From positions 94,986,001 through 95,050,000 of the forward strand of contig NC_086097.1 of NCBI RefSeq assembly GCF_963921235.1: a stretch of 64,000 bases of DNA. Reading direction: 5' to 3'. Both the position numbers and the translations under genes were made by a program. The DNA is from Mobula hypostoma. Its lineage: Eukaryota. The stretch's first letter is position 1. Every line of letters begins with the position of its first letter. Positions 6,517 to 64,000 of the stretch are shown here, piece after piece. The notes under the pieces were generated by a model that was not told where the DNA came from, made no database searches, and worked only from the letters and a program-made list of their open reading frames with translations.

Positions 6517-7446
6517 GGCAGGATGTTAGAATGCTCCTCTTGCAGGATGTAGGAAGTCAGGGAGCCCTCCGGTGTCCCTGACAACGACACCTGCAAGAAG
6601 TGCATCCAGCTGCAGCTCCTGACAAACCGCGTTAGGGAACTGGAGCAGGAGCTGGATGACCTGCGGATCATTCGGGAGAATAAGGAGATTATAGATAGTA
6701 GCTACAGGGAGGTAGTTACGCCAAAGGAGCAGAGGACAGGAAATTGGGTCACTGTCAGGCGAGGGAAGAGGAAAGGGCAGGCAGAGCAGGGTTCCCCTGT
6801 GGCCATTCACCTCAACAACAAGTATACCGCATTGGATACTGTTGGGGGGGATGACTTACCTGGGACAAGCTGCAGTAGCCGGATGTCTGGCACTGAGTCT
6901 GGCTCTGCAGTGCAGAAGGGAGGGGGGAGAAAGAGGAGAGCGGTAGTGATAGGGGACTCGATAGTTAGAGGTGCAGATAGAAGGTTCTGTGGTCGTGACA
7001 GAGAATCCAGGATGGTTTGTTACCTCCCAGGTGCCAGGGTCAAGAATGTCTCTGATCGATTGCATGACATTCTGAAGTGAGAGGGTGACCAGCCAGATGT
7101 CGTGGTGCACATCGGTACCAATGACATAGCAAGGAAGGGTGAAGAGGTCCTGGACAGTGAGTATAGAGAGCTTGGTAGGAAGTTGAAAAGCAGGACCTCA
7201 AGGGTGGTAGTCTCAGGATTGCTACCTGTGCTAGGTGCCAGTGAGGGTAGGAATAGGATGCTCTGGAGGAGGAACAAGTGGCTGAGGAACTGGTGTAGGG
7301 GGCAGGGTTTCAGATTTCAGGATCATTGGGACCTCTTCTGGGGCAGGTGGGACCTGTACAAGAGAGATGGGTTACACTTGAACCACAGGGGGACCAATAT
7401 CCTTTCAGGGAGGTTTGTTAGTGCTATTGGGGAGGCTTTAAACTAG
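6511..7446 (+). pseudogene. CR1 ORF1 (zinc finger/leucine zipper plus SGNH esterase), two premature stops
   Basis: ATG 6511 MPGRMLECSSC...TCKKC, LTNRVRELEQELDDL, VIGDSIVR, VHIGTND, DGLHLN; stops at 6550 and 7078; natural TAG at 7444-7446. Confidence 0.9.
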
Positions 7447-10378
7447 ATTTGCAGGGGGATGGGAACCAGAGTGCTAGAGCTGACAGTGTGGGTGGGGTGA
7501 AAATAAATGATATTGAAAGTTTAAGCAAATCCGCTGATAGAAAGGTTGTGAGTGGTGGTAAAAATCTTCTGAGGTGTATATATTTCATTGCTAGGAGTAT
7601 TGCAGGGAAGGCGGATGAGTTGAGGGCGTGGATTGACACGTGGAGTTATGATGTTGTAGCAATTAGTGAAACTTAGCTACAGGAGGGGCAGGACTGGCAG
7701 CTTAATATTCCAGGGTTCCGATGTTTCAGATGTGATCGAGGCAGAGGAATGAAAGGTGGGGGAGTAGCATTGCTTGTTAGGGAAAATATTACAGCAGTGC
7801 TCAGGCAGGACAGATTAGAGGGCTTGTCTACTGAGTCCTTATGGGTGGAGCTGAGAAACAGGAAAGGTATGGCCACATTAGTGGGATTGTATTACAGACC
7901 ACCCAATAGTCAACGAGACTTGGAAGAGCAAATCTGCAGAGAGATAGCAGGCAACTGCAGGAAACATAAAGTTGTGGTGGTAGGGGATTTTAATTTTCCA
8001 TACATTGATTGGGACTCCCATACTGTTAGGGGTCTAGATGGTTTAGAGTTTGTAAAATGTGTTCAGGAAAGTTTTCTAAATCAATATATAGAGGGACCAA
8101 CTAGAGGGGATGCAATATTGGATCTCCTGTTAGGTAACAAATTAGGGCAAGTGACAGAAGTCTGTGTAGGGGAGCACTTTGGTTCCAGGGATCATAACAC
8201 CATTAGTTTCAATTTGGTCATGGACAAGGATAGATCTGGTCCTAGGGTTGAGGTTCTGAACTGGAAGAAGGCCAAATTTGAAGAAATGAGAAAGGATCTA
8301 AAAAGCGTGGATTGGGACAGGTTGTTCTTTGGCAAAGATGTGATTGGTAGGTGGGAAGCCTTCAAAGGGTAAATTTTGAGAGTGCAGATTTTGTATGTTC
8401 CTGTCAGGATTAAAGGCAAATTGAATAGGAATAAGGAACCTTGGTTCTCAAGGGACATTGCAACTCTGATAAAGAAGAAGAGGGAGTTGTATGAAATGTA
8501 TAGGAAACAGGGGGTAAATCAGGTGCTTGAGGAGTATAAGAAGTGCAAGAAAATACTTAAGAAAGAAATCAGGAGGGCTAAAAGAAGACATGAGGTTGCC
8601 TTGGCAGTCAAAGTGAAGGATAATCCAAAGAGCTTTTACAAGTATATTAAGAGCACAAGGATTGTAAGGGATAAAATTGGTCCTCTTGAAGATCAGAGTG
8701 GTCGGCTTTGTGCGGAACCAAAGGAAATGGGGGAGATCTTAAATAGGTTTTTTGCGTCTGTATTTACTAAGGAAGCTGGCATGAAATCTATGGAATTGAG
8801 GGAATCAAGTAGTGAGACCATGGAAACTGTACAGATTGAAAAGGAGGAGGTGCTTGCTGTCTTGAGGAAAATTAAAGTGGATAAATCCCCGGGACCTGAT
8901 AGAGTGTTCCCTCGGACCTTGAAGGAGACTAGTGTTGAAATTGCGGGGGCCCTAGCAGAAATATTTAAAATGTCGCTGTCTACGGGTGAAGTACCGGAGG
9001 ATTGGAGAGTGGCTCATGTTGTTCCGTTGTTTAAAAAAGGATCGAAAAGTAATCCGGGAAATTATAGGCCGGTGAGTTTAACGTCAGTAGTAGATAAGTT
9101 ATTGGAGGGAGTACTAAGAGACAGAATCTACAAGCATTTGGATAGACAGGGGCATATTAGGGAGAGTCAACATGGCTTTGTGCGTGGTAGGTCATGTTTG
9201 ACCAATCTGTTGGAGTTTTTCGAGGAGGTTACCAGGAAAGTGGATGAAGGGAAGGCAGTGGATATTGTCTACATGGACTTCAGTAAGGCCTTTGACAAGG
9301 TCCCCGCATGGGAGCTTAGTTAGGAAAATTCAGTCGCTAGGTATACATGGAGAGGTGGTAAATTGGATTAGACATTGGCTCGATGGAAGAAGCCAGAGAG
9401 TGGTGGTAGAGAATTGCTTCTCTGAGTGGAGGCCTGTGACTAGTGGTGTGCCACAGGGATCAGTGCAGGGTCCATTGTTATTTGTCATCTATATCAATGA
9501 TCTGGATGATAATGTGGTAAATTGGATCAGCAAATTTGCTGATGATACAAAGATTGGAGGTGTAGTAGACAGTGAGGAAGGTTTTCAGAGCCTGCAGAGG
9601 GACTTGGACCAGCTGGAAAAATGGGCTGAAAAATGGCAGATGGAGTTTAATACTGCCAAGTGTGAGGTATTGCACGTTGGAAGGACAAACCAACGTAGAA
9701 CATACAGGGTTAATGGTAAGGCACTGAGGAGTGCAGTGGAACAGAGGGATCTGGGAATACAGATACAAAGTTCCCTAAAAGTGTCGTCACAGGTAGATAG
9801 GGTCGTAAAGAGAGCTTTTGGTACATTGGCCTTTATTAATCGAGGTATTGAGTATAAGAGCTGGAATGTTATGATGAGGTTGTATAAGGCATTGGTGAGG
9901 CCAGATTTGGAGTATTGTGTTCAGTTTTGGTCACCAAATTACAGGAAGGATATAAATAAGGTTGAAAGAGTGCAGAGAAGGTTTGCAAGGATGTTGCCGG
10001 AACTTGAGAAACTCAGTTGCAGAGAAAGGTTGAATAGGTTGGGACTTTATTCCCTGGAGCATAGAAGAATGAGGGGAGATTTGATAGAGATATATAAAAT
10101 TATGATGGGTATAGATAGAGTGAATGCAAGCAGGCTTTTTCCACTGAGGCAAGGGGAGAAAAAAACCAGAGGACATGGGTTAAGGGTGAGGGAGGGAAAA
10201 GTTTAAAGGGAACATTAGTGGGGGCTTCTTCACACAGAGAGTGGTGGGAGTATGGAATGAGCTGCCAGACGAGGTGGTAAATGCGGGTTCTTTTTTAACA
10301 TTTAAGAATAAATTGGACAGATACATGGATGGGAGGTGTATGGAGGGATATGGTCTGTGTGCAGGTCAGTAAGACTAG
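7437..10378 (+). pseudogene. CR1 ORF2 (APE endonuclease plus RT), in the -1 frame relative to ORF1
   Basis: LRCIYFIARSI, ISET, GDFNFP, TRGDAILDL, RDH, GPD, QHGF, GVPQGS, KFADD; stops at 7674 and 8370, frameshifts near 9305 and 10195. Confidence 0.93.
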
Positions 10379-23999: not shown

Positions 24000-26760
24000 A
24001 AACATAGAATATACAGCGCTGGTCAGGCCATTTGGCCCAAAGTCCTCCTCATGCATATCATCCCTATCCCTCCAGTCTCTTCATATTTATATCAAAAACC
24101 CTCTGAAAGTCTACCAAACTGGCTGCTTCCACTGGTAACCTTGGTAACTCATTCCTGGAACCTACTACTCTGTGTTAAAAACTTGCCACTCACAACCCCC
24201 TTAAACTCTCCCCCCCCCCCGCCCCCAGCCCACCAACCTTAAAAGCATGCTCTGGTGTTTGACATTCCCAACCTGGGGAAAAGACACTGGAGCAGAATTA
24301 AGCCATTCGGCCCATCAAGTCTGCTCCATCATGGCAGATTTATTATCCTTTTTAACACCATTCTACTGCTTTCTCCCTATAACCTTTGTTTCCCTGACTA
24401 ATCAAGAACCTATCAACCTTTGCTTTAAACTTTTCTAATGGCTTGGTCTTCACAGCTGTCTGTGGCAATGAATTCCATAGATTCACCACCCTCTGGCTAA
24501 AGAAATTCTTCCTCATGTCTATTCTAAATGGACATCCCTCTACTTTGAGGCTCTAGCCTTTGATTCTAGACTCACTCATTTTTGGCAAGCGGGCATATGC
24601 AGCCTCAGCCCAATCTCTATCCAGCTAACAGGAAGCACTTACCACTCATTTCCATATTATTACCTGAAGCCTAATTAAACCCAGCCCTCACACTGATCGG
24701 AAATGTAGAGAAGGCTTGACCCAAAAGCAGAGTAGCTGAGATGACTCAGCAGCAAGCAGTACTGTTAATAATTAACTGTAAAATAACAAGCCACGAGGGC
24801 TGCAGAAACAAGAGAGAACAGATCCTACAGTCACAGGTAACAAGTTAACTGAAGGCTAGGAGCAACTGGTTGAGGCTGGCTGGTTCAAATGAGTGAACAA
24901 AGATTGTGGATAAGAGCTAGGTTCAAATAGGCTTCAGGTGATGAGTGGCAAGTGACTCCTGTTAACTTGATAAAGGCTAGGAGGAACCTGTATGTGCAGG
25001 CCTGACAACTCCATCCAGGTGTTTCAATATTCAAAAGGTTTCAATGAGAGCCCCACCCCCCCCCATTCTTCTAAACTCCAGTGAGTACTGCCCAGAGCCT
25101 TAAACTCTTCTCATACATGAACCCTTTCATTCCCAGAATCATTTTTGTGAACCACCACTGGACCAACTCCAATGCCAGAACATCCTTTCTTAGATAAAGA
25201 GCCCAAAACTGTTCACAATATTCCAACTGCGGTTCACCAATACATTATAAAGCATCAGCATCACATCCCTACTCTTATATTCTAGTCCTTTCGAAATGAA
25301 TGGTAACATTGCAGTTGCCTTCCTTACCACCAACTCAACCTGCATATTAACTTTCAGGTAATCCTGCATGAGGATTTCTAAATCCCTTTTCACCTCTGAT
25401 TTTTACCTTTTCTCACCATTTAGAAAATAGTCTATGCTGTTATTCCTTCTACCAAAGTGCATGATCATACACTTCTCTAGATTATATTCCCTCTGCTACT
25501 TCTTTGCCCATTCTCCCAATCTGGCTAAGTCCTTCTCAACACTCCCTGCTTCCTCAACACTAACTATTCCTCCATTTAACTTTGTATCATCTGCAAACTT
25601 GGCCACTAAGTCTTCAATTCCATAATTAAACCTGTGGACCTACTATTTGAAAAGAAGTGGACACAATACCAATTGCTGTGGAACGCGGCCAACTAGAATG
25701 GGCTTCCTTTATTCTCACTCTGCCTCCTGCCAGTTAGCCAATCTTCTATCCTGCTAGTATCTTTCCTGTAATACCATGGGCTCTTATCTTGTTAAGCAGC
25801 ATCATCGGTGGCACTTTGTCAAAGATCTTCTGAAAATCCAAGTAAACAACATCTATTGACTCTCCTTTGTCTACCCTGCCTGTTATTTCCTCAAAGAATC
25901 CCAACATATATGTCAGGCAAGATGTTCCTTTAAGGAAACCATGCTGATTTTGACCTACTTTATCAGGTCTCTCCAAGTACCCTGAAACATCATCCTCGAT
26001 AATGGACTCCAACATCTTCCTAACCACTGACATTGGGCTAATGAGGCTATAATTTCCTTCCTTCTGCCTCCCTCCCTTCTGAACTGCAATTTTGCCCTAT
26101 TATCTGCTTGTCCATCCTCATAGTCTTACCACACAATGCATTGACTTTTATACCAACTGCCCCATCCTCAGCCCCTTCACTCAAGTTCTCATTCCCCTGC
26201 CAAATTAGTTTAAACCTTTCCCAACAGCTCTAGCAAACCTGCCGGCAAGGATATTGGCCCCCCTTGGGTTCAGATGTAATTTGTTCTTTCTGTACAGATC
26301 ATACCTTCCCCAGAAGAGATCCCAATGATCCAGAAATCTGAAACCTTTCCCCCTACCACTCCCTCAGGCATTCATTCATCTGTATTATCATCCTATTCCT
26401 GCCTTGAGTAGCATGTAGGATGGGTGTAATCCAAGGACTATTAACTTGGAGGTCCTTCTCTTCAGCCTCTTTGCTAACTCCCTACACTCACTGCGCAGGA
26501 TCTCTTCCCCCTTTCTACCTATGTCATTAGCTTGAAAGTGCCCCACAACCTCTGGCTGCTCACCCTCCTTCTTGAGAATCTTCTGCAGCAACTCTGGGTC
26601 ATCCTGGATCCTAGCACCTGTGAGGCAACACACCATCCTGGTATCTCTTTCACAGCCACAGAATCTTTTGTCCATCCCCCTAACTATCGAGTCTCCTAAC
26701 ACTATTGCTCTGCGTAATGTTACCCTTCCCTGCTGAGCCTCAGAGGCAGTCACAGCTCTC
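24000..26760 (-). mobile_element. CR1 cluster: 3' tails plus an internally deleted copy retaining ORF1 esterase and RT
   Basis: ORF 26388-26765 IVLGDSIVRG; 25746-26033 QHGFLKG; 25190-25393; the APE domain is missing between ~26080 and ~26100. Confidence 0.85.
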
Positions 26761-29919: not shown

Positions 29920-31504
29920 CAGTGGTGCTAGGAAGTCTGTGAACCCCATTTAAGTTTTCTATTTCTGCATAAATATGACCTAACATGTGACCTGAACTTC
30001 ACGCAGGTCCTAAAACTAGATAAAGAGAACCCAATTAAATAAATAGCACAAAAAACATCGTACTACTTCATTTATTCATTGAGAAAAACGATCCAATATT
30101 AAATGTATCTTTTGGAAAAGTATGTGAACCTCTGGGTAGTGCCTTCTACAAAAGCTATTTGGAGTCAGGAGTTCCAATCAATGAGATGAGATTGAAGGTG
30201 TGGTTTGTAGAGGTGTGACACACAAAGTGAGGTTACTGCCAGAGCCTGCTCTTCTCAAGAAAGGTCTGTTTATGTGCACCATGCCTTGATCAAAACAACT
30301 TTCAGAAGACCTTAGAAGAAGAATCGTAGAGATGCACGAAGCTGGAAAAGGTTACAAAATCATTTCTAAAGAGCTGAGTGTTCATCAGTCCACAGTAAGA
30401 GAAATTGTCTACAAATGGAGGAAACTCAGTATTATTGTTACTCTCCCTACGTGTGGGCTTCCTGCAAGGTTCACACCAAGAGCACAATGTGCATTGCTAA
30501 AGGAGGTGAAAAAGAACCCAAAAGAACAAAAGGCCTGCAGAAATCTCAAGAACTTGCTAAAATCTATGTTCATCTGTCCCCTTAAGAAAAACACTGGACA
30601 ACAATGGTGTTCATGGAAGGACACCACAGAGGAAACCACTGCTCCCCAAAAAAAAATATTGCTGTACGCCTCACATTTACAAAAGGCCACCTGGATGTTC
30701 GACAACACTTCTGGGACAATGTTCTGTGACCAGATGAGACAGAAGTTGGCAGAAATGCACATTGCTATATTTGGAGAAAAAAGGGCACTGCACACCAACA
30801 CCAAAACCTCATCCCAACTGTGAAGCAAGGCGGAGGGAGCATCATGTTTTGGGGCTGCTTTGCTGCCTCAGGGCCTGGACGGCTTGGTATCATTGAGAGA
30901 ACAATGAATTCAAAATTGTATCAAGACATTTTACGGGAGAATATCAGGGTAGCAGTCTGTCACCTGTAGCTTAATAGAAGTTGGATAATGCAACAAGACA
31001 ATGACCTGAAAGGCAAGAGAAAATCAACAACAAAATGATTTAAAAAGAAGAGATTTTTTGGAATGGCTGAATCAAAGTCCTGATCTTAATTCTATAGAAA
31101 TGCTGTAAAAGGACCTAAAGCAAGCAGTTCATGCAAAGAAGCCCACCAACATCCCAGAGTTGAAGCAGTTTTGTAAGGAGGAATGGCCTAAAATTCCTCT
31201 AAGCTGATGTGCAGGACTAATCAATAGTTACCGGAAACATTTGGTTGAAGTTATTGCTCTACAAGGGGCTCACACCAGTTACTGAAAGCAAAGATTCACA
31301 TACTTCTTCTAAGAAATACATATAATACTGGATCATTTCCCTCAACAAATAAATGAACAAGTATAATGTTTTTGTGTTATTTATTTAATTGAGTTTGCTT
31401 TATCTAGTTTTAGGACTTAGGTGAAGATATGATCACATGTTAGGTCATATTTATGCAGAAATAGAGGAAATTCTACAGGGTTCACAAACTTTCAAGCACC
31501 ACTG
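29920..31504 (+). mobile_element. Full-length defective Tc1 IR/DR transposon
   Basis: TA|CAGTGGTGCT...AGCACCACTG|TA; ~210-bp TIRs; decayed transposase from ATG 30281 (LSEDLRRRIVEMHEAGKGYKIISK, GGGSIMFWGCF, MQQDND). Confidence 0.95.
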
Positions 31505-45259: not shown

Positions 45260-47614
45260 AGATTCAAAGATTCAAAAAAACTTTATTGTCATTCTAACCA
45301 TACATCAGCTCTGCAGGGCAGAATGAGACAGCATTTCTCAGGGGCAGTGCAATCATAGCATAACAGATGCAACACTAACTAATAAACATAACAATAAATA
45401 GTAAAACACAACAGCCACATGTCAGTTAAAATCAGTTATAAGTGTCCAGTGCAAGTTAAAAGTGTCCAAAGCAGAGTCAGCTAGAGCAGCTATTTAGCAG
45501 TCTGACTGCCTGTGGGAGGAAGCTGTTTAGTAGCCTTGTGGTTTTAGTTTTGATGCTCCTGTAACGTTTGCCTGATGGCAGAAGAACAAACAGTTCATGG
45601 AGAGGGTGTGAGGGGTCTTTAATGATGTACCGTGTCTTCTGGAGGCATCGACTCTGAAAGAGGTCTTGGACAGAAGGTAGGGAGACCCCAATAACCTTCT
45701 CTGCTCCCCTAACCACCCTCTGCAAGGCTTTTTTGATGACAGCACTGCAGCTGGAGTACCAGGTTGTGATGCAAAAGGTCAGCACACTCTCGACCACGCT
45801 TCTGTAGAATGTAGTTAAGATGTTAGTGGGGCATGATGCTTGTTTAAGCTTCCTCAGAAAGTGCAATCTCTGCTGGGCCCGTTTCACAATCCCAGTGGTG
45901 TTCCTGGACCAGGTGAGATTGTCCGAGATCTGTACCCCAAGGAACTTGATGTTTTCCACTCTCTCCACTGTGGAGCCGCTGATGCTGAGGGGTGTGTGCT
46001 CAGGCGGAGACCGTCTGAAATCGACGATCATCTCCTTGGTTTTGGTGACATTAAGCATCAAGTTGTTATCCCTGCACCAGCTCTCTAGGTGTTTGACCTC
46101 CTCTCTGTACATTGTTTCATCAGTATTGCTGATGAGCCCCCACCACTGTGGTATCATCTGCAAATTTAATGATCAGGTTCTCCTTGAATCTGGCTGCACA
46201 GTCATGTGTTAGCAGTGTACACAGCAATGCGCTAAGTACACAGCCTTGTGGGGATCCAGTGCCCAGTGTGATGAAGTCAGAGATGTTCCTGCCAACACGG
46301 ACTGACTGTGGTCTCTCTGACAAGAAATCCAGAATCCAGCGACACATGGCAGTGCTAAGGCCAAGCAGTGACAGTTTCTCCACTATGGGATGATGGGATG
46401 ATGGTATTGAACGCTGAACTGAAATCAATGTACAGGATTCTGGCATAAGTGTCTTTGTTGTCCAAGTGAGAGAGAACTGTGTGCAGTGTAGTGGATATTG
46501 CCTCCTCTGTACAGCGATTTGGAGGATAAGCAAACTGTAGAGGATCCAGCGATGAGGGGAGGCTGGCTGTGATATGAGGCTTGACAAGCCATTCAAAACA
46601 TTTCATCACTATGGGGGTCAGGGCAACGGGTCGGTAATCATTCAGACAAGCTACAACTGATTTCTTTGCTACAGGGATGATTGTGGAGGTTTTGAAGCAT
46701 CTGGGGACAAAAGCTTGACTAAGAGAGATGTTGAAAATGTCTGTCAGGACATCTGCTAATACATCAGCACATTCCTTGAGCACACGTCCAGGGATGTTGT
46801 CGAGACCTCCCGCTTTTCGTGGGTTGACCCTGGCAAGGGTCCTCCGTGTTTGCTCTGGATCAATGATTGAAGCCGGCTGGTCAGATAGTGAAAAGGGACT
46901 GGCTCTCCCCCTTGCTGTAGTGTTTGATGCTTCGAAGTGGGCAAAGAAATTGTTCGGCCTGTCTGGAAGAGAGACGTCGCTGTCATCAGTTTTCTGCCTG
47001 ATCTTGTAGTCTGTCAGAGCTTTAATTCCCTGCCACATCCGTCTGGTGTCACCTGTGTCACAGAAGTGTCCATATATTTTGCCCGTGTAGGCCCTTATCG
47101 CTTTCCTGATCCCGAGTGAAAGCGCAGACCTGGCTGAGCGAAGCGCTCTCCTGTCCCCCGATCTGTAGGCTGTGTCACGGGCCTTCAGTAGTGAACGCAC
47201 CGCTGTTGTCATCCACGGCTTTTCATAACCATGTGCGGTGAAGGTTTTCATCACAGTGACATCCTCCGTGCATTTGGCTATGTAGCTGATTACTGCCTCC
47301 GCATACTCCTCAATGTCTGTATGGTCATCATAGGAGGCTGCTGTTTTGAATATGTCCCAGTCTGTGTGCAAAAAACAGTCTTGTAGTGCTGAGGCTGCTC
47401 CTTTTGGCCAGACCCTTATCTCTCTTTTCTCTGCTCTCACACGTTTAAGCAGTGGTTTATTTGCTGGTGTTAATATGACAGATATGTGGTCAGAGTGGCC
47501 AAGATGGGGGTGGGGGGCTGCTTTGTATGCCTGTGGTGTGTTGGTATAAACCAAGTCCAGTGTGTTGTCTCCCCTAGTTTTGAAATCCACATATTGCCAG
47601 AATTCGGGGAACAC
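45260..47614 (-). mobile_element. Young Rex1/Babar LINE (APE C-terminus, RT, tail)
   Basis: ORFs 46355-47614, 46120-46596 and 45477-46163: [60 protein letters not shown] then (GAATCTTT)n tail; two frameshifts. Confidence 0.95.
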
Positions 47615-47679
47615 AGGTCAGAGGTCCTGAGCTCAAAATAAGGGACCAGCCATTCATAACTGAAGTAAGAAGAAATCTT

Positions 47680-55938: not shown

Positions 55939-56727
55939 CTGAGAACAAACAGAAAAATTAGAAGATTATCATCAACAAAACAATATGATGCGAAGTTGTT
56001 GCTGGGTAGCTGTGATTAGTGAGCCACAGCTGAGAAAACTCTTGAGTCTCGAAATTTAGTCCGGCATCTTATTTTAGGGAACAAAAGGAGGGAAAGTTTC
56101 ACTTTGGTTCTTCTATATTTCCCTGTTTTTTGTAACTGTTTTCTGCAATTAAGCCTGATGTATGCAGTATAAAATCAGACAGAACCAAAGTCGACACTGA
56201 ACAGAGAGTGGGTCATTTCAGGAGAGGAGACACAATAAAAGAATACCGAAGACAGCTTCAAATAAAACCATTGTTTGGAATAAGCAGCTACTAAGGAAAT
56301 ACGCATAATTCAAATGTACAGCTGAATGTTGGTAAGGCCACATTTGGAATACTACATACCGTTCTAATCACCATGCTCTCTGAAAGATGTCATTAAACTT
56401 GGGAGGGCACAAAAAAAGATTTACAGATGTTATCAGGACTGAAGTGCTTGAGTTATAAGGAGAGTCTAGATAGACTGATACTGCTTTCCCTGGAGGCTGA
56501 GGGATGAACTCAATAAGTCGTATAACATCATAAGGGGCACAGGTAAGGTGAATAGTCAGTCTTTCCAAAACGTTTGGGAAGTCAGAGGACTTAGGTGTAA
56601 GATGAGAGGGAAAGGTTTGAAAAGAACTTTGGGCAAGTCTTTCACACATGTGACAGTGTGTTAATGGACCAAGTTGCCAGAAGAAATATTTAAGGAAGGA
56701 ACAATTACAACCTTTAAAAGACACTCA

Positions 56728-57716
56728 GGCTACATCTACACTACGCTGGATAATTTTGAAAACGCCGGTTTTGAGTAAAAATGATAGGCGTCCACACTAA
56801 GCGTTTTTCAAAATATCTCTGTCCACATTAGATGGATATTTGGACGAATCCCCTCCTACTGGGCATGCGCAGGACACACAGAAAACAAGCGAAGAGGAAA
56901 CGGTATACTTGGTGCATGTTTGTCCAGTTACAGAGTAGAAAAACTTTAAAGGAATTGCTCTTGGCTCTCGCGCAGGAGGACTTAAAACTAAAAAAAACAA
57001 ATACTGGAGCGTATGGAGGCAACCGACAGGGAGTTCACGGACAGTATGACCCAGCTGACGACAAACGTTGAAAAACTGATAACTCTGTTGCATTAATAAA
57101 GCACCTTGTTAAATGTATAAAACTTGTCTGCATCAGTGTTATCTTGTATTTCCATACAATGTTACATTAGGCTGTTACAGATCTATTGTCAGAGAAGTAC
57201 TTGCATAAATAGGTAAAGCACCTTCATACAAGCAAGGACAGAAAACAGGGCGAAGTGAGTATACTTATTTATTCAGTAAGCTATGGGTCAAAGTATTTGG
57301 TGAGTACATTTCTACCTCTTCTGGCTTCAGTCTCGTTGCCATCTGTTCTGAAATTGTTAGGTTCTGCAAAGCGCAGAATCAAATATCGCTGTGATGATTG
57401 TATGCTCTAGTATCAATTGTTTGGCGACAATAAAGTAGTAATAATAATAATAAGAAGAATAATCAGAAGAAAACAATGAAATGCCGCGCTGTCGCCATTT
57501 GTTCCGGCACGTCATGACAGTGGTTTTAAAAAGCTCTGGTTACCCCGTACACACTGCAACGGATATTAGGCGTTTTCAGATTTATTCACTCTGGAGACCG
57601 TTTCTGAAAATCTCCATTTTCCAGGGCTGAAAACGCTGTTTCAGTGTGGACGGAAGGTCAAAATGAAGAGAAAAAGCTTTGTTTTCAAAATTATCCGGCG
57701 TAGTGTGGATGTAGCC
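56728..57716 (+). mobile_element. Non-autonomous PIF/Harbinger element
   Basis: 36-bp TIR GGCTACATC(T/C)ACACTACGC(T/C)GGATAATTTTGAAAAC; 3-bp TCA TSD; subterminal TCCACAC repeats. Confidence 0.9.
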
Positions 57717-57775
57717 TCAGACAAGTAATGGATAGGAGAGGCTTAGATATTGGTAATACACAGGCAATTGGGAGC

Positions 57776-57945
57776 AAACATGAGGAAATCTGCAGATGCT
57801 GGAATTTCAAGCAACTCACACAAAAAATGCTGGTGAACGCAGCAGGCCGGGCAGCATCTATAGGAAGAGGTACAGTCGACGTTTTGGGCCGAGACCCTTC
57901 GTCAGGACCTATAGATGCTGTTTGGCCATTTTTTGCTGTGTTGCT
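57776..57945 (-). mobile_element. Penelope terminus with partial foldback and 13-bp TSD
   Basis: Hammerhead-like motif at 57873-57908 (GAAA changed to AAAA); GGCAA(T/C)TGGGAGC at 57763 and 57946. Confidence 0.8.
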
Positions 57946-60985: not shown

Positions 60986-62597
60986 GTCACAAGTGGTCAA
61001 TGGCTGAAGGTTGGATAGGCTGGACAAGACAAGACATGTCATGACCTCATAGGACGTTATTAGTGACTCTGATCAGGGATGTTTAAAGAACGTGGCAGAA
61101 ATGGAAAACTGCTGCAAGTAGAACACAAGGACTTCATGCACTAACCTGGGAAACCACATCATATTCAAAGTGCTCAGAGAAGAAAAGGTGTTTAGAGATG
61201 GTTCGTAATTTTAGGGATAGACATGTTAATCACTACAGCTGGCAGATGATCATTGGTGCACCACATTAATTCTTATTTTGGCTCCTTTATCAGTGCATGC
61301 CTTAACTTCACCATCTCTAGAGGAGATGTTCACCCAGACTTTGTTAGCCATAGGTCTTTATACAGATACTATCTCTGCATTTTTTTACCTCGCATACATC
61401 TCCTCAGGTATAGCAACCAAGATTGACAAATTATGGATGAGGTCTGACCAGTGGCAGTCTATGCAATCGCAGTCACTTTTTCTTATTGTAAATCTCAGTG
61501 GAAATGTCGTTTCTGAACTGAGCAAGTTACGGATCCAAGATCAACTCTAAAGAATTGAGTACATAACCCAGGCTTAATTTTATTAATTTCTGGGGTGAGG
61601 GTAATGTTGGCAAGACCAGCATTCATTCCCCATCCTTAATACCCTTAGGACCATGTGTGTCAAGAGGCCACTGCTGTGATGATGGCCAATCTGGGTAAAG
61701 AGGTAGATTCTCACTGTAAACAACAAAATGAAACAGAAGGGTTTGTAGTTTCATGGCCATCATTCCTGGTGTTAAGATTGACATCTGCATTGGAAATGCT
61801 TTATTCTCCTGAGATCCTGGACTAAAGGCCCTGTCTGGTATTTGTCTGAAATACCAGGCAAAGAACAAAGAAGATTCCATATCTTCAAGATTCAAGATTC
61901 CATATGTTGAATGAAAAGAAGAGCACAGGAGCTGCCCCTAATGTTCTACTCCACACTTATCCTACTACCAGGATAGCAAACCTGATGTAGAAACAAAAAA
62001 ACTATAAATACAGTATTTCGCCTTTATATTGCTAAACTGTAGGAGAAGCCGCCATCTACCAGCTCATTGTAATGAGCTTTAACACATAATAAAAACAGAA
62101 AATCTGGAAAAAGCAACAGGTGCTGCCTTTGACCTGAAATATTAAACTGCTTCTATCTCCACAGATTTGGCCTGACCTGCTGATTGTTTCCAGTGTATTC
62201 TATTCCAGATTTTCATTTTGATGTACATAGCTTATTTAAATAAGCCTTGATGGTATGTGGTGCTCAAGTTGACAAGGGTTGTGGGTGGATAACTACACAG
62301 CTTGGTCCTATCAAAGAGGAGTATTAGAATTTGTCTGATCCTCACAAGTTTTTGCAAGCCTACTTATTTATTTCTTTGTGAGCCTAGCCCTAGGTTTCAC
62401 AGCTTCAGAGTTGAAGGGCTTCACTGTGGGAATGAGACAGAATGGTCAGCAGTTTCTTTTGTTTGGGGGTGGTAGGAGAGGAGGTAAAATCACTTATTCA
62501 CTGTGGCTATTGGAAGGCAGCCTGGTAGGAATGAACTCTGCGAATGAAATATCAAATGGAGCTTCTGACTACAGCTCTCACAGTGTGCATGATGGTA

Positions 62598-63590
62598 AAG
62601 TTGGCCCTCCTTATCCGCGGGTTCCGCATGCGCGGATTCAACCAACCGCGGATTGGAAAAACCCGGAAGTTCTCTCTCCAGCACTCATTGTTTGAGTATT
62701 TTTTCTTATCATTATTTCCTAAACAATACAGTAGAGCAACTATTTACATAGCATTTACATTGTATTAGATTATTAGATTAGATTAGATTATGAGGACACG
62801 CAGTCCTCTTTTATTGTCATTTAGTAATGCATGCATTAAGAAATGACACAATATTCCTCCAGTGTGATATCACAGAAACACAGGACAGACCAAGACTGAA
62901 AAACTAACAAAAAAAACGTAATTATAACATATAGTTACAACAGTGCAACAATACCATAACTTGATGGAGAACAGGCCATGGTCACAGTAAAAAAGTTCAA
63001 ACTCTCTCGAAAGTCCCACGTCTCATGCAGGCGAGAGAAGGAAGAAAACACTCTCTGCCATGCCTGACCACAGTCCGACTCTGAGTCGTCCGAAAACTTT
63101 GAGCCTCCGATCAACCCTCTGACACCGAGTACCAAGCACCATCTCTGCCGAACGCTTCGACCCCAGCCTCGGTCGCCAGCAGCAGGCAAAGCCGGGGATT
63201 TTGGAGCCTTCCCTCCAGAGATTCTCGATCGCACAGTAGCAGCGGCAGCGAACGGGCATTTCAGAAGTTTTCTCCAGATGTTCCTCTGCTTCTCACGTCT
63301 ATCTCCATCAAATCAGAATTGTGCATGGTACCCTACTTACAAATATGATATCATTTCACCGGAGAGCTGCGCGTGCTGCATTGCGCCACCATCTTCTCCT
63401 CCCACCTCCTTCTCCTCCATTATATTAGGTATTATAAGTAATCTAGAGATGATTTAAAGTACACGGGAGGATGTGCGTAGGTTATATGCAAATACTACGC
63501 CATTTTATATAATGGACTTGAGCATCTGCGTTTTTTAGTATCCGCAGGGGGTCCCGGAACCAATCCCCTGCAGATAGGGAGGGCCGACTG
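62598..63590. mobile_element. MER2-like Tigger MITE (~333 bp without its nested insertion)
   Basis: TA TSDs; termini AAGTTGGCCCTCCTTATC / GATAGGGAGGGCCGACTG; internal sequence resembles my recollection of the MER2 consensus in antisense. Confidence 0.85.
62769..63417 (-). mobile_element. Non-coding ~650-bp retroposon with LINE-type 3' end and 11-bp TSD
   Basis: Minus strand starts GAGGAGAAGGAGGTGGGAGGAGAAGATGGTGGCG and ends GACAATAAAA-GAGGAC tgcgt GTCCTC-(TAATC)n; TSD CATT(G/A)TATTAG. Confidence 0.8.
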
Positions 63591-64000
63591 TACAAGCTAA
63601 AGGTCCCAGCCAACACACTTCCACCCAAGAGGTTCATGCAGTGGTTTAGAAACCTCAGAGCTTAGGAAATGGCCTAAGCCTCAGATAAAAGATTTCCATA
63701 TTAACCTACAATAGAAGAAGGTGGCAATCAGCCTATTGAGTCTATACCAACTCATGGAGAAATCCCATTTCTTCACTAGTTTTCCCAATAACCAATTCTC
63801 TCTACATTCCCATTCCTTAATTTATGGGTGGACAGAATGCTGCAGGATTTCTGTGGACACCTTTGGCTTATTCAAGGATTAATTTGCCCATGTTTTGATG
63901 CCATCTTATCCATTGAGGATCCAAATACTTTCCACCAGGTAGTCATCTTTCAAAAAACATTACCCCTTTCTGTAGTGGGTATTCTGCAGACTCCTTCACT

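Follow-up and report, generated by a model that had tools for sequence, protein, structure and literature searches.

A devil ray MITE that appears to be a sister of the human MER2 family, very probably linked to mammals by horizontal transfer

Described relatives and earlier claims of transfer

Human MER2 is among the first six human MER families and is classed as a non-autonomous DNA transposon of Mariner/Tc1 type (PMC5753468). According to PMC1914374 and its supplement the family has a length of 345 bp, is represented by 8,377 fragments with a median divergence of 18.5%, and was active around the mammalian radiation. In the related pogo/Tigger elements the terminal inverted repeats (TIRs) range from 8 to 33 bp (PMC9219625).

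Horizontal transfers of Tigger elements between Eutheria and Chondrichthyes were already claimed in Diaby et al. 2022 study, which includes the sharks Carcharodon and Scyliorhinus (PMC9219625). These transfers and the ray element described here agree in superfamily and in the two host groups involved; however, the transfers were established on elements that code for transposase, with at least 70% identity required, while the ray element is a non-coding MITE. In the supplement of that paper the ray TIR was found in none of the five chondrichthyan rows, where myliobatiforms have no row, and the name MER2 has no occurrence; with no matching TIR in these rows an autonomous partner was not found. 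The class of event is therefore known and has been claimed for other Tigger families, and the surprise is limited.

Two more systems are close. The Mariner-1_Tbel and Mariner1_BT families represent transfers between mammals and insects, with more than 95% identity, dated to about 100–69 Mya (PMC3517439), and resemble the ray case in the very high identity between a mammalian family and one of a distant animal, but they belong to Mariner and not to pogo/Tigger, involve insects and not a ray, and are autonomous. MER6 belongs to the same class of human MITEs, and parts of it trace to a turtle Mariner and a fish V-SINE (PMC6887750); it matches its parent only in ends of 56–104 bp with 18–32% divergence, while the ray element matches its foreign counterpart over most of its length and more closely. 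No MER2 relative in cartilaginous fish is described in the accessible text of PMC5753468, PMC7386202, PMC3525145, PMC9004415, and PMC7325037, and a literature search, with subscription papers and repeat databases mostly outside its scope, returned no report of the ray MITE in sharks or rays or of its letters.

Anatomy, genomic setting and age of the ray element

The DNA analysed (hereafter the window) comprises 64,000 nucleotides of Mobula hypostoma (contig NC_086097.1, positions 94,986,001 to 95,050,000). The element spans 62598–63590 and measures 333 bp once its two arms (171 and 162 bp) are rejoined (Table 1). The original prediction of a TA-flanked MITE of about 333 bp was thus confirmed with TA at both ends and 24-bp TIRs; the segment it proposed to remove, 62769–63428, is exactly the nested insertion plus one copy of its 6-bp duplication, and a long stretch which it quoted is present, but only after the nested insertion is taken out.

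Table 1. Features of the ray MITE and of the element nested in it (positions in the window)
Feature	Position	Strand	Remarks
Left TA target-site duplication	62596..62597	.	
Left TIR, 24 bp, first base mutated	62598..62621	+	19/24 vs right TIR
MITE left arm, 171 bp, 8 CpG	62598..62768	.	18 foreign repeat copies match in translation
Ray-type internal block	62655..62699	.	unlike foreign family; present in Hypanus sabinus copy
Core block	62700..62765	.	20/22 residues equal the foreign-copy majority, one reading frame
6-bp target-site duplication of nested element (TATTAG)	left 62763..62768, right 63423..63428	.	
Nested non-coding element, 654 bp, short 5-bp-unit tandem tail at 3' end	62769..63422	-	
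MITE right arm, 162 bp, 7 CpG	63429..63590	.	6/15 sampled 31-mers in non-ray organisms C, D, G
Right TIR, 24 bp	63567..63590	-	starts CAGT on minus strand, as many Tigger-type ends (PMC9219625 Table S1)
Right TA target-site duplication	63591..63592	.	

Three features of a pogo/Tigger-type MITE are found together at this locus: a TA duplication, TIRs of about 20–25 bp with a CAG start, and a short non-coding body, where the longest open frame in the arms has 56 codons. Taken by itself, the TIR match carries modest weight, since 14 of the 632,570 TA..TA end pairs in the window agree at at least 19 of 24 positions, the other 13 representing four other inverted-repeat pairs elsewhere in the window; the repeat finder (seed 9) did not report the MITE TIRs. 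When the window was compared with itself, no second copy of either the MITE or the nested element was found. The locus is best read as a MITE of pogo/Tigger type that is dead and non-autonomous and belongs to a ray-specific family; this reading, taken jointly with the independent derivation considered below, is held to be rather probable. Elsewhere in the window a short inverted-repeat pair at ~24620–24970, with a spacing of about 350 bp and ends in TA, is alike at 19 of 24 positions and is possibly another MITE.

The nested element is read, from its anatomy, as a non-autonomous non-LTR retroelement, and Pfam assigned neither of the two open frames that overlie it to a family. Its tandem tail resembles its own target site (both ATTAG), as if microhomology had been used in priming.

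The setting is rich in LINE fragments with reverse transcriptase, endonuclease, and esterase domains, among which CR1-type domains were recognized by Pfam, and it also holds a Tc1 element. For one piece of a LINE ORF1, 16 relatives were found, and the three that bear names come from Hypanus sabinus and Mobula birostris, in keeping with a ray host. A near full-length CR1-type LINE (esterase ORF1, endonuclease, reverse transcriptase; ~6550–10270) is interrupted by a few stops and frame shifts; a long LINE fragment on the minus strand (~45480–47620) with reverse transcriptase and PF09004 domains is presumably of Rex1/Babar type; and the TA-flanked Tc1 element (29920–31504) has long inverted termini together with an HTH domain of Sleeping Beauty type (PF25787). 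An element of about 1 kb at ~56727–57717 has inverted ends of ~40 bp (92% alike) and a 3-bp duplication TCA, and we take it to be of PIF/Harbinger type and non-autonomous; a very high-copy piece at ~57780–57910 was assigned to it.

Searches for other kinds of relationship were negative. Rfam gave no hit at gathering score over the 64-kb window, with one chance hit (E 0.31) near the MITE; exact-motif scans gave 0, 3, and 0 hits in viral contigs, the three matching over 18–19 nt only and thus being chance, 0 and 0 in metagenome contigs, and 0 and 0 in prokaryote genomes; BLASTN against plasmids and phages showed no match.

The MITE arms contain 15 CpG with O/E 0.98, against a median of 0.23 for 192 window tiles of 333 bp, only one of which reaches the MITE value, so the statement that many CpGs are preserved holds; the nested element has O/E 0.77 with one duplication copy counted in. 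The conclusion drawn from it, that of a young and recent insertion, was rejected on account of TIR decay and nesting. The two TIRs differ at 5 of 24 positions, 3 of them by CpG decay, which affected 3 of 6 TIR CpG sites when the CG state is inferred from the opposite TIR; at non-CpG TIR sites 2 of 36 differ (95% interval 0.7–19%), and a retroelement was inserted later. The shark mutation rate is very low, 7e-10 per site per generation, and among the lowest measured in vertebrates (PMC10587355), so CpG retention and good preservation need not mean recent insertion. The ray copy may accordingly be old and yet well kept owing to slow mutation in rays, and the ray and mammalian invasions would then be perhaps of similar age.

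Similarity to a foreign repeat family

The 56-codon frame of the left arm had three protein matches among 13 candidates, namely, one Hypanus sabinus isoform and two spurious ORFs. The isoform agrees in its tail at 24 of 30 residues, over a stretch that takes in the 45-bp ray-type block, while the two spurious ORFs match on both sides of this block and differ in the block itself. With one of these ORFs as a query, 20 candidates included 18 ORFs of this kind, every one of which aligns to the ray element; the closeness of their majority to the ray core block (Table 1) compares with a median of 16.5 of 22 residues for single copies, and 4 of the 18 run across the empty insertion site of the nested element. 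In the terminal block several foreign differences are changes from Arg to His, Cys, or Trp, which are of CpG-decay type, and the ray copy retains the CpG state; these changes lead us to regard the foreign family as old, present in many copies, and heavily methylated.

A search of cluster representatives returned seven matches, the Hypanus protein and six of foreign type, with the ray-type block only in Hypanus. That the family occurs in both the devil ray and Hypanus would place its activity close to the divergence of the two ray families or earlier. The Hypanus record (P0017) is a VAMP4-locus isoform model that runs into a copy of the ray MITE family, that is, a predicted exonised copy, which may be an annotation artefact.

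The right arm was followed at the level of exact words, with 15 sampled and mutually overlapping 31-mers (63423–63593) compared with sequencing-run contigs. Among the runs listed, 21 runs from 11 studies and 9 organisms carry part of the right-arm words. The best holder was run X1 with 9 of 15 words, and the best runs of organisms C, D, and G had 6 of 15 each. These four runs (X1, X19, X18, and X10) were then compared with 19.5 kb of ray DNA from around, but not within, the MITE. In X1 195,253 contigs match the 19.5 kb, and three unique flank pieces are matched with no differences, so X1 stems from the host itself or from a very close relative. By contrast, X19 (organism C; 2,549 Mb of contigs), X18 (organism D; 2,582 Mb), and X10 (organism G; 632 Mb) have only 4, 11, and 2 short contigs, respectively, on the ray DNA, with matches of at most 45 nt where listed, and at 80% likeness neither CR1 nor Rex1 of the ray kind is seen in organisms C and D. 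None of organisms C, D, and G is thus a ray, and their runs are free of ray DNA. The runs of organisms B, E, F, H, and I together with four runs that have no organism assigned hold 0.33–0.47 of the words; they stand outside the ray/non-ray comparison and are given no evidential weight.

Chance would be expected to supply ~1e-9 of a match per 31-mer in 2.5 Gb. Under a model with a foreign family of 10,000 copies, each 15–20% diverged from its own consensus, 6 of 15 words fits a distance of ~5–10% between the ray copy and the foreign consensus, while at 15% distance 5–9% of words are expected and the probability of at least 6 of 15 is 5e-5 to 1e-3; the figure of 6 of 15 is biased upward, as it comes from the best holders of many runs with overlapping words, and human DNA in the runs could supply words. 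The right-arm words and the core-block match extend far beyond the TIRs. Restriction of the similarity to the TIRs, which had been named as the outcome that would speak against transfer, was thus rejected, and the foreign likeness reaches well into internal DNA.

Such likeness can be set against the alternative that the family was passed down vertically since the ancestor of jawed vertebrates, with rays evolving slowly and the ends of the element strongly constrained. The split of rays and mammals is older than 300 My, and the identity is high in internal non-coding DNA, beyond the TIRs on which such constraint would act. The low shark mutation rate cited above is in favour of slow decay, and some SINE domains are conserved across vertebrates without transfer (PMC6887750), but the mammalian line alone would have accumulated heavy neutral change at ~2.2e-9 per site per year (quoted in PMC6887750), the activity of MER2 is placed around the mammalian radiation (PMC1914374), and the foreign genomes contain almost none of the vertically inherited LINEs of the ray. 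This explanation is accordingly regarded as very improbable. The likeness to the foreign repeat appears far too high for descent from the last shared ancestor of rays and mammals, and transfer between distant animals is the most likely reading; the divergence comparison behind it rests on ~5–10% from the word-sharing model, on the absence of ray LINEs from organisms C, D, and G, and on holders that are sequencing-run contigs.

Contamination of the ray assembly by mammalian DNA, or a chimeric join, was likewise considered and rejected, with hardly any probability left to it. The single MITE copy in the window is in its favour; however, TA duplications lie in ray flank, the nested element has its own duplication, the ray copy keeps CpGs that foreign copies have lost, and the 45-bp block absent from foreign copies recurs in a second ray record, that of Hypanus sabinus. 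Moreover, the host-like run X1 is the best word holder, and the foreign holders are free of ray LINEs. The original prediction of horizontal transfer is thus supported in part: foreign similarity far beyond the TIRs and disfavoured contamination speak for it, recent insertion is not supported, the identity of the foreign family with mammalian MER2 is a probable reading, and movement of the MITE itself is the less likely one, since the difference in one internal block fits separate derivation from a shared parent.

The foreign family appears to be human MER2 and mammalian. Its identification as MER2 is putative, and so is the almost base-for-base match of the ray sequence to the MER2 consensus, for which the word sharing and the translated foreign copies give indirect support outside the 45-bp block; organisms C and D, with ~2.5 Gb of contigs and no ray-like LINEs, are in keeping with a mammalian source. 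Frames beside the repeat were also taken to be Alu-like in P0026 and P0035, L1 3'UTR-like in P0018, and MaLR- and MER58-like in P0019; no Pfam hit in the 18 foreign ORFs passed the cut-off, so that Pfam lent no support to an Alu, L1, or MaLR reading of the flanks, and a literature search for the Alu peptide returned nothing. The size and copy decay reported for MER2 fit those of the foreign copies (PMC1914374).

It may also be that the transfer is real and the foreign family belongs to another lineage than mammalian MER2, the MER2 likeness being looser than supposed. The contigs of organism G amount to only 632 Mb, and the MER2 letters were in no paper found by literature search; against it are the presumed Alu-, L1- and MaLR/MER58-like frames, the heavy CpG decay, decay level, and size that fit human MER2, and the large genomes of organisms C and D without ray-like CR1 and Rex1. 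This is considered improbable. As a separate observation, run X10 of organism G could come either from an animal with a small genome or from mammalian data that are incomplete.

Taking the foreign family as MER2, the ray element is like MER2/MER2B in length (333 and 345 bp), TA duplication, short TIRs, and non-coding character, and both of its ends closely match the MER2-like foreign family. It is unlike them in its ray host, another 45-bp block, largely kept CpGs, a length shorter by ~12 bp, and the nested retroelement. The length thus agrees with the ~345 bp of MER2, while the same internal structure is not found throughout, since the ray-type block differs; for this reason the ray element is a sister family rather than a strict member. 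In all, it is a real, ray-native sister of a family that is very probably human MER2.

Origin of the ray family and its meaning

Transfer in some form very probably links the ray element to mammals. For its course, the rather more specific explanation that the ray and placental-mammal MITEs derived independently from a shared, horizontally acquired pogo/Tigger parent is held to be probable, with appreciable doubt. One autonomous element, or two near-identical sisters, would have entered rays and placental mammals horizontally, the two entries being probably separate and the source perhaps an invertebrate or an aquatic reservoir. Each host would then have made its own internal-deletion derivative, the mammalian one being presumably MER2, and the two derivatives would share their ends (~57 bp and ~230 bp) and differ in the 45-bp block. 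At the present locus a transposase encoded elsewhere would have bound the TIRs and pasted the MITE into a TA site, as may be supposed from the pogo/Tigger family (PMC9219625). Common ends with one differing block fit separate internal deletions from the same or a near-identical parent.

Near-equal lengths and the same long end are more than independent deletions require, and together with the collinearity across the empty insertion site they speak for the transfer of a ready-made MITE with a helper, or for one fairly direct step between mammal and ray, with later replacement of the 45-bp block in one lineage. However, the clean replacement of the block is an extra event, and for a direct step it should be considered that transfers in which mammals or birds take part are rare, with 24 among at least 975 in the survey reported in PMC7070016. 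This course of events is judged unlikely, although less so than a foreign family other than MER2, and independent derivation from a shared parent is preferred.

A wider scenario can be put forward only tentatively. Human MER2 and the ray family could both have arisen, as sisters, by deletion from a single pogo/Tigger transposon whose horizontal spread around the time of the mammalian radiation took in placental mammals, myliobatiform rays, and arthropods, and full-length copies of this parent might still be recognisable in the slow ray genomes.

The rarity of mammals in the surveyed transfers gives the case its interest. Systematic transfer surveys generally use coding parts, so a match between two MITEs is easily missed. 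Although Tigger transfers between Eutheria and Chondrichthyes as such were already claimed (PMC9219625), a ray MITE sister of a MER2-like family would be a new case. A near-identical ray sister would give MER2, with its more than 8,000 human fragments, an outside link and a place to seek the parent transposase. Full-length ray parents, if they exist, would identify the transposase behind MER2 and offer a point in time common to the ray and mammal clocks, and if the two invasions were simultaneous, the divergence of ray copies against that of mammalian copies (human median 18.5%) would directly compare the long-term neutral rates of the two lineages.
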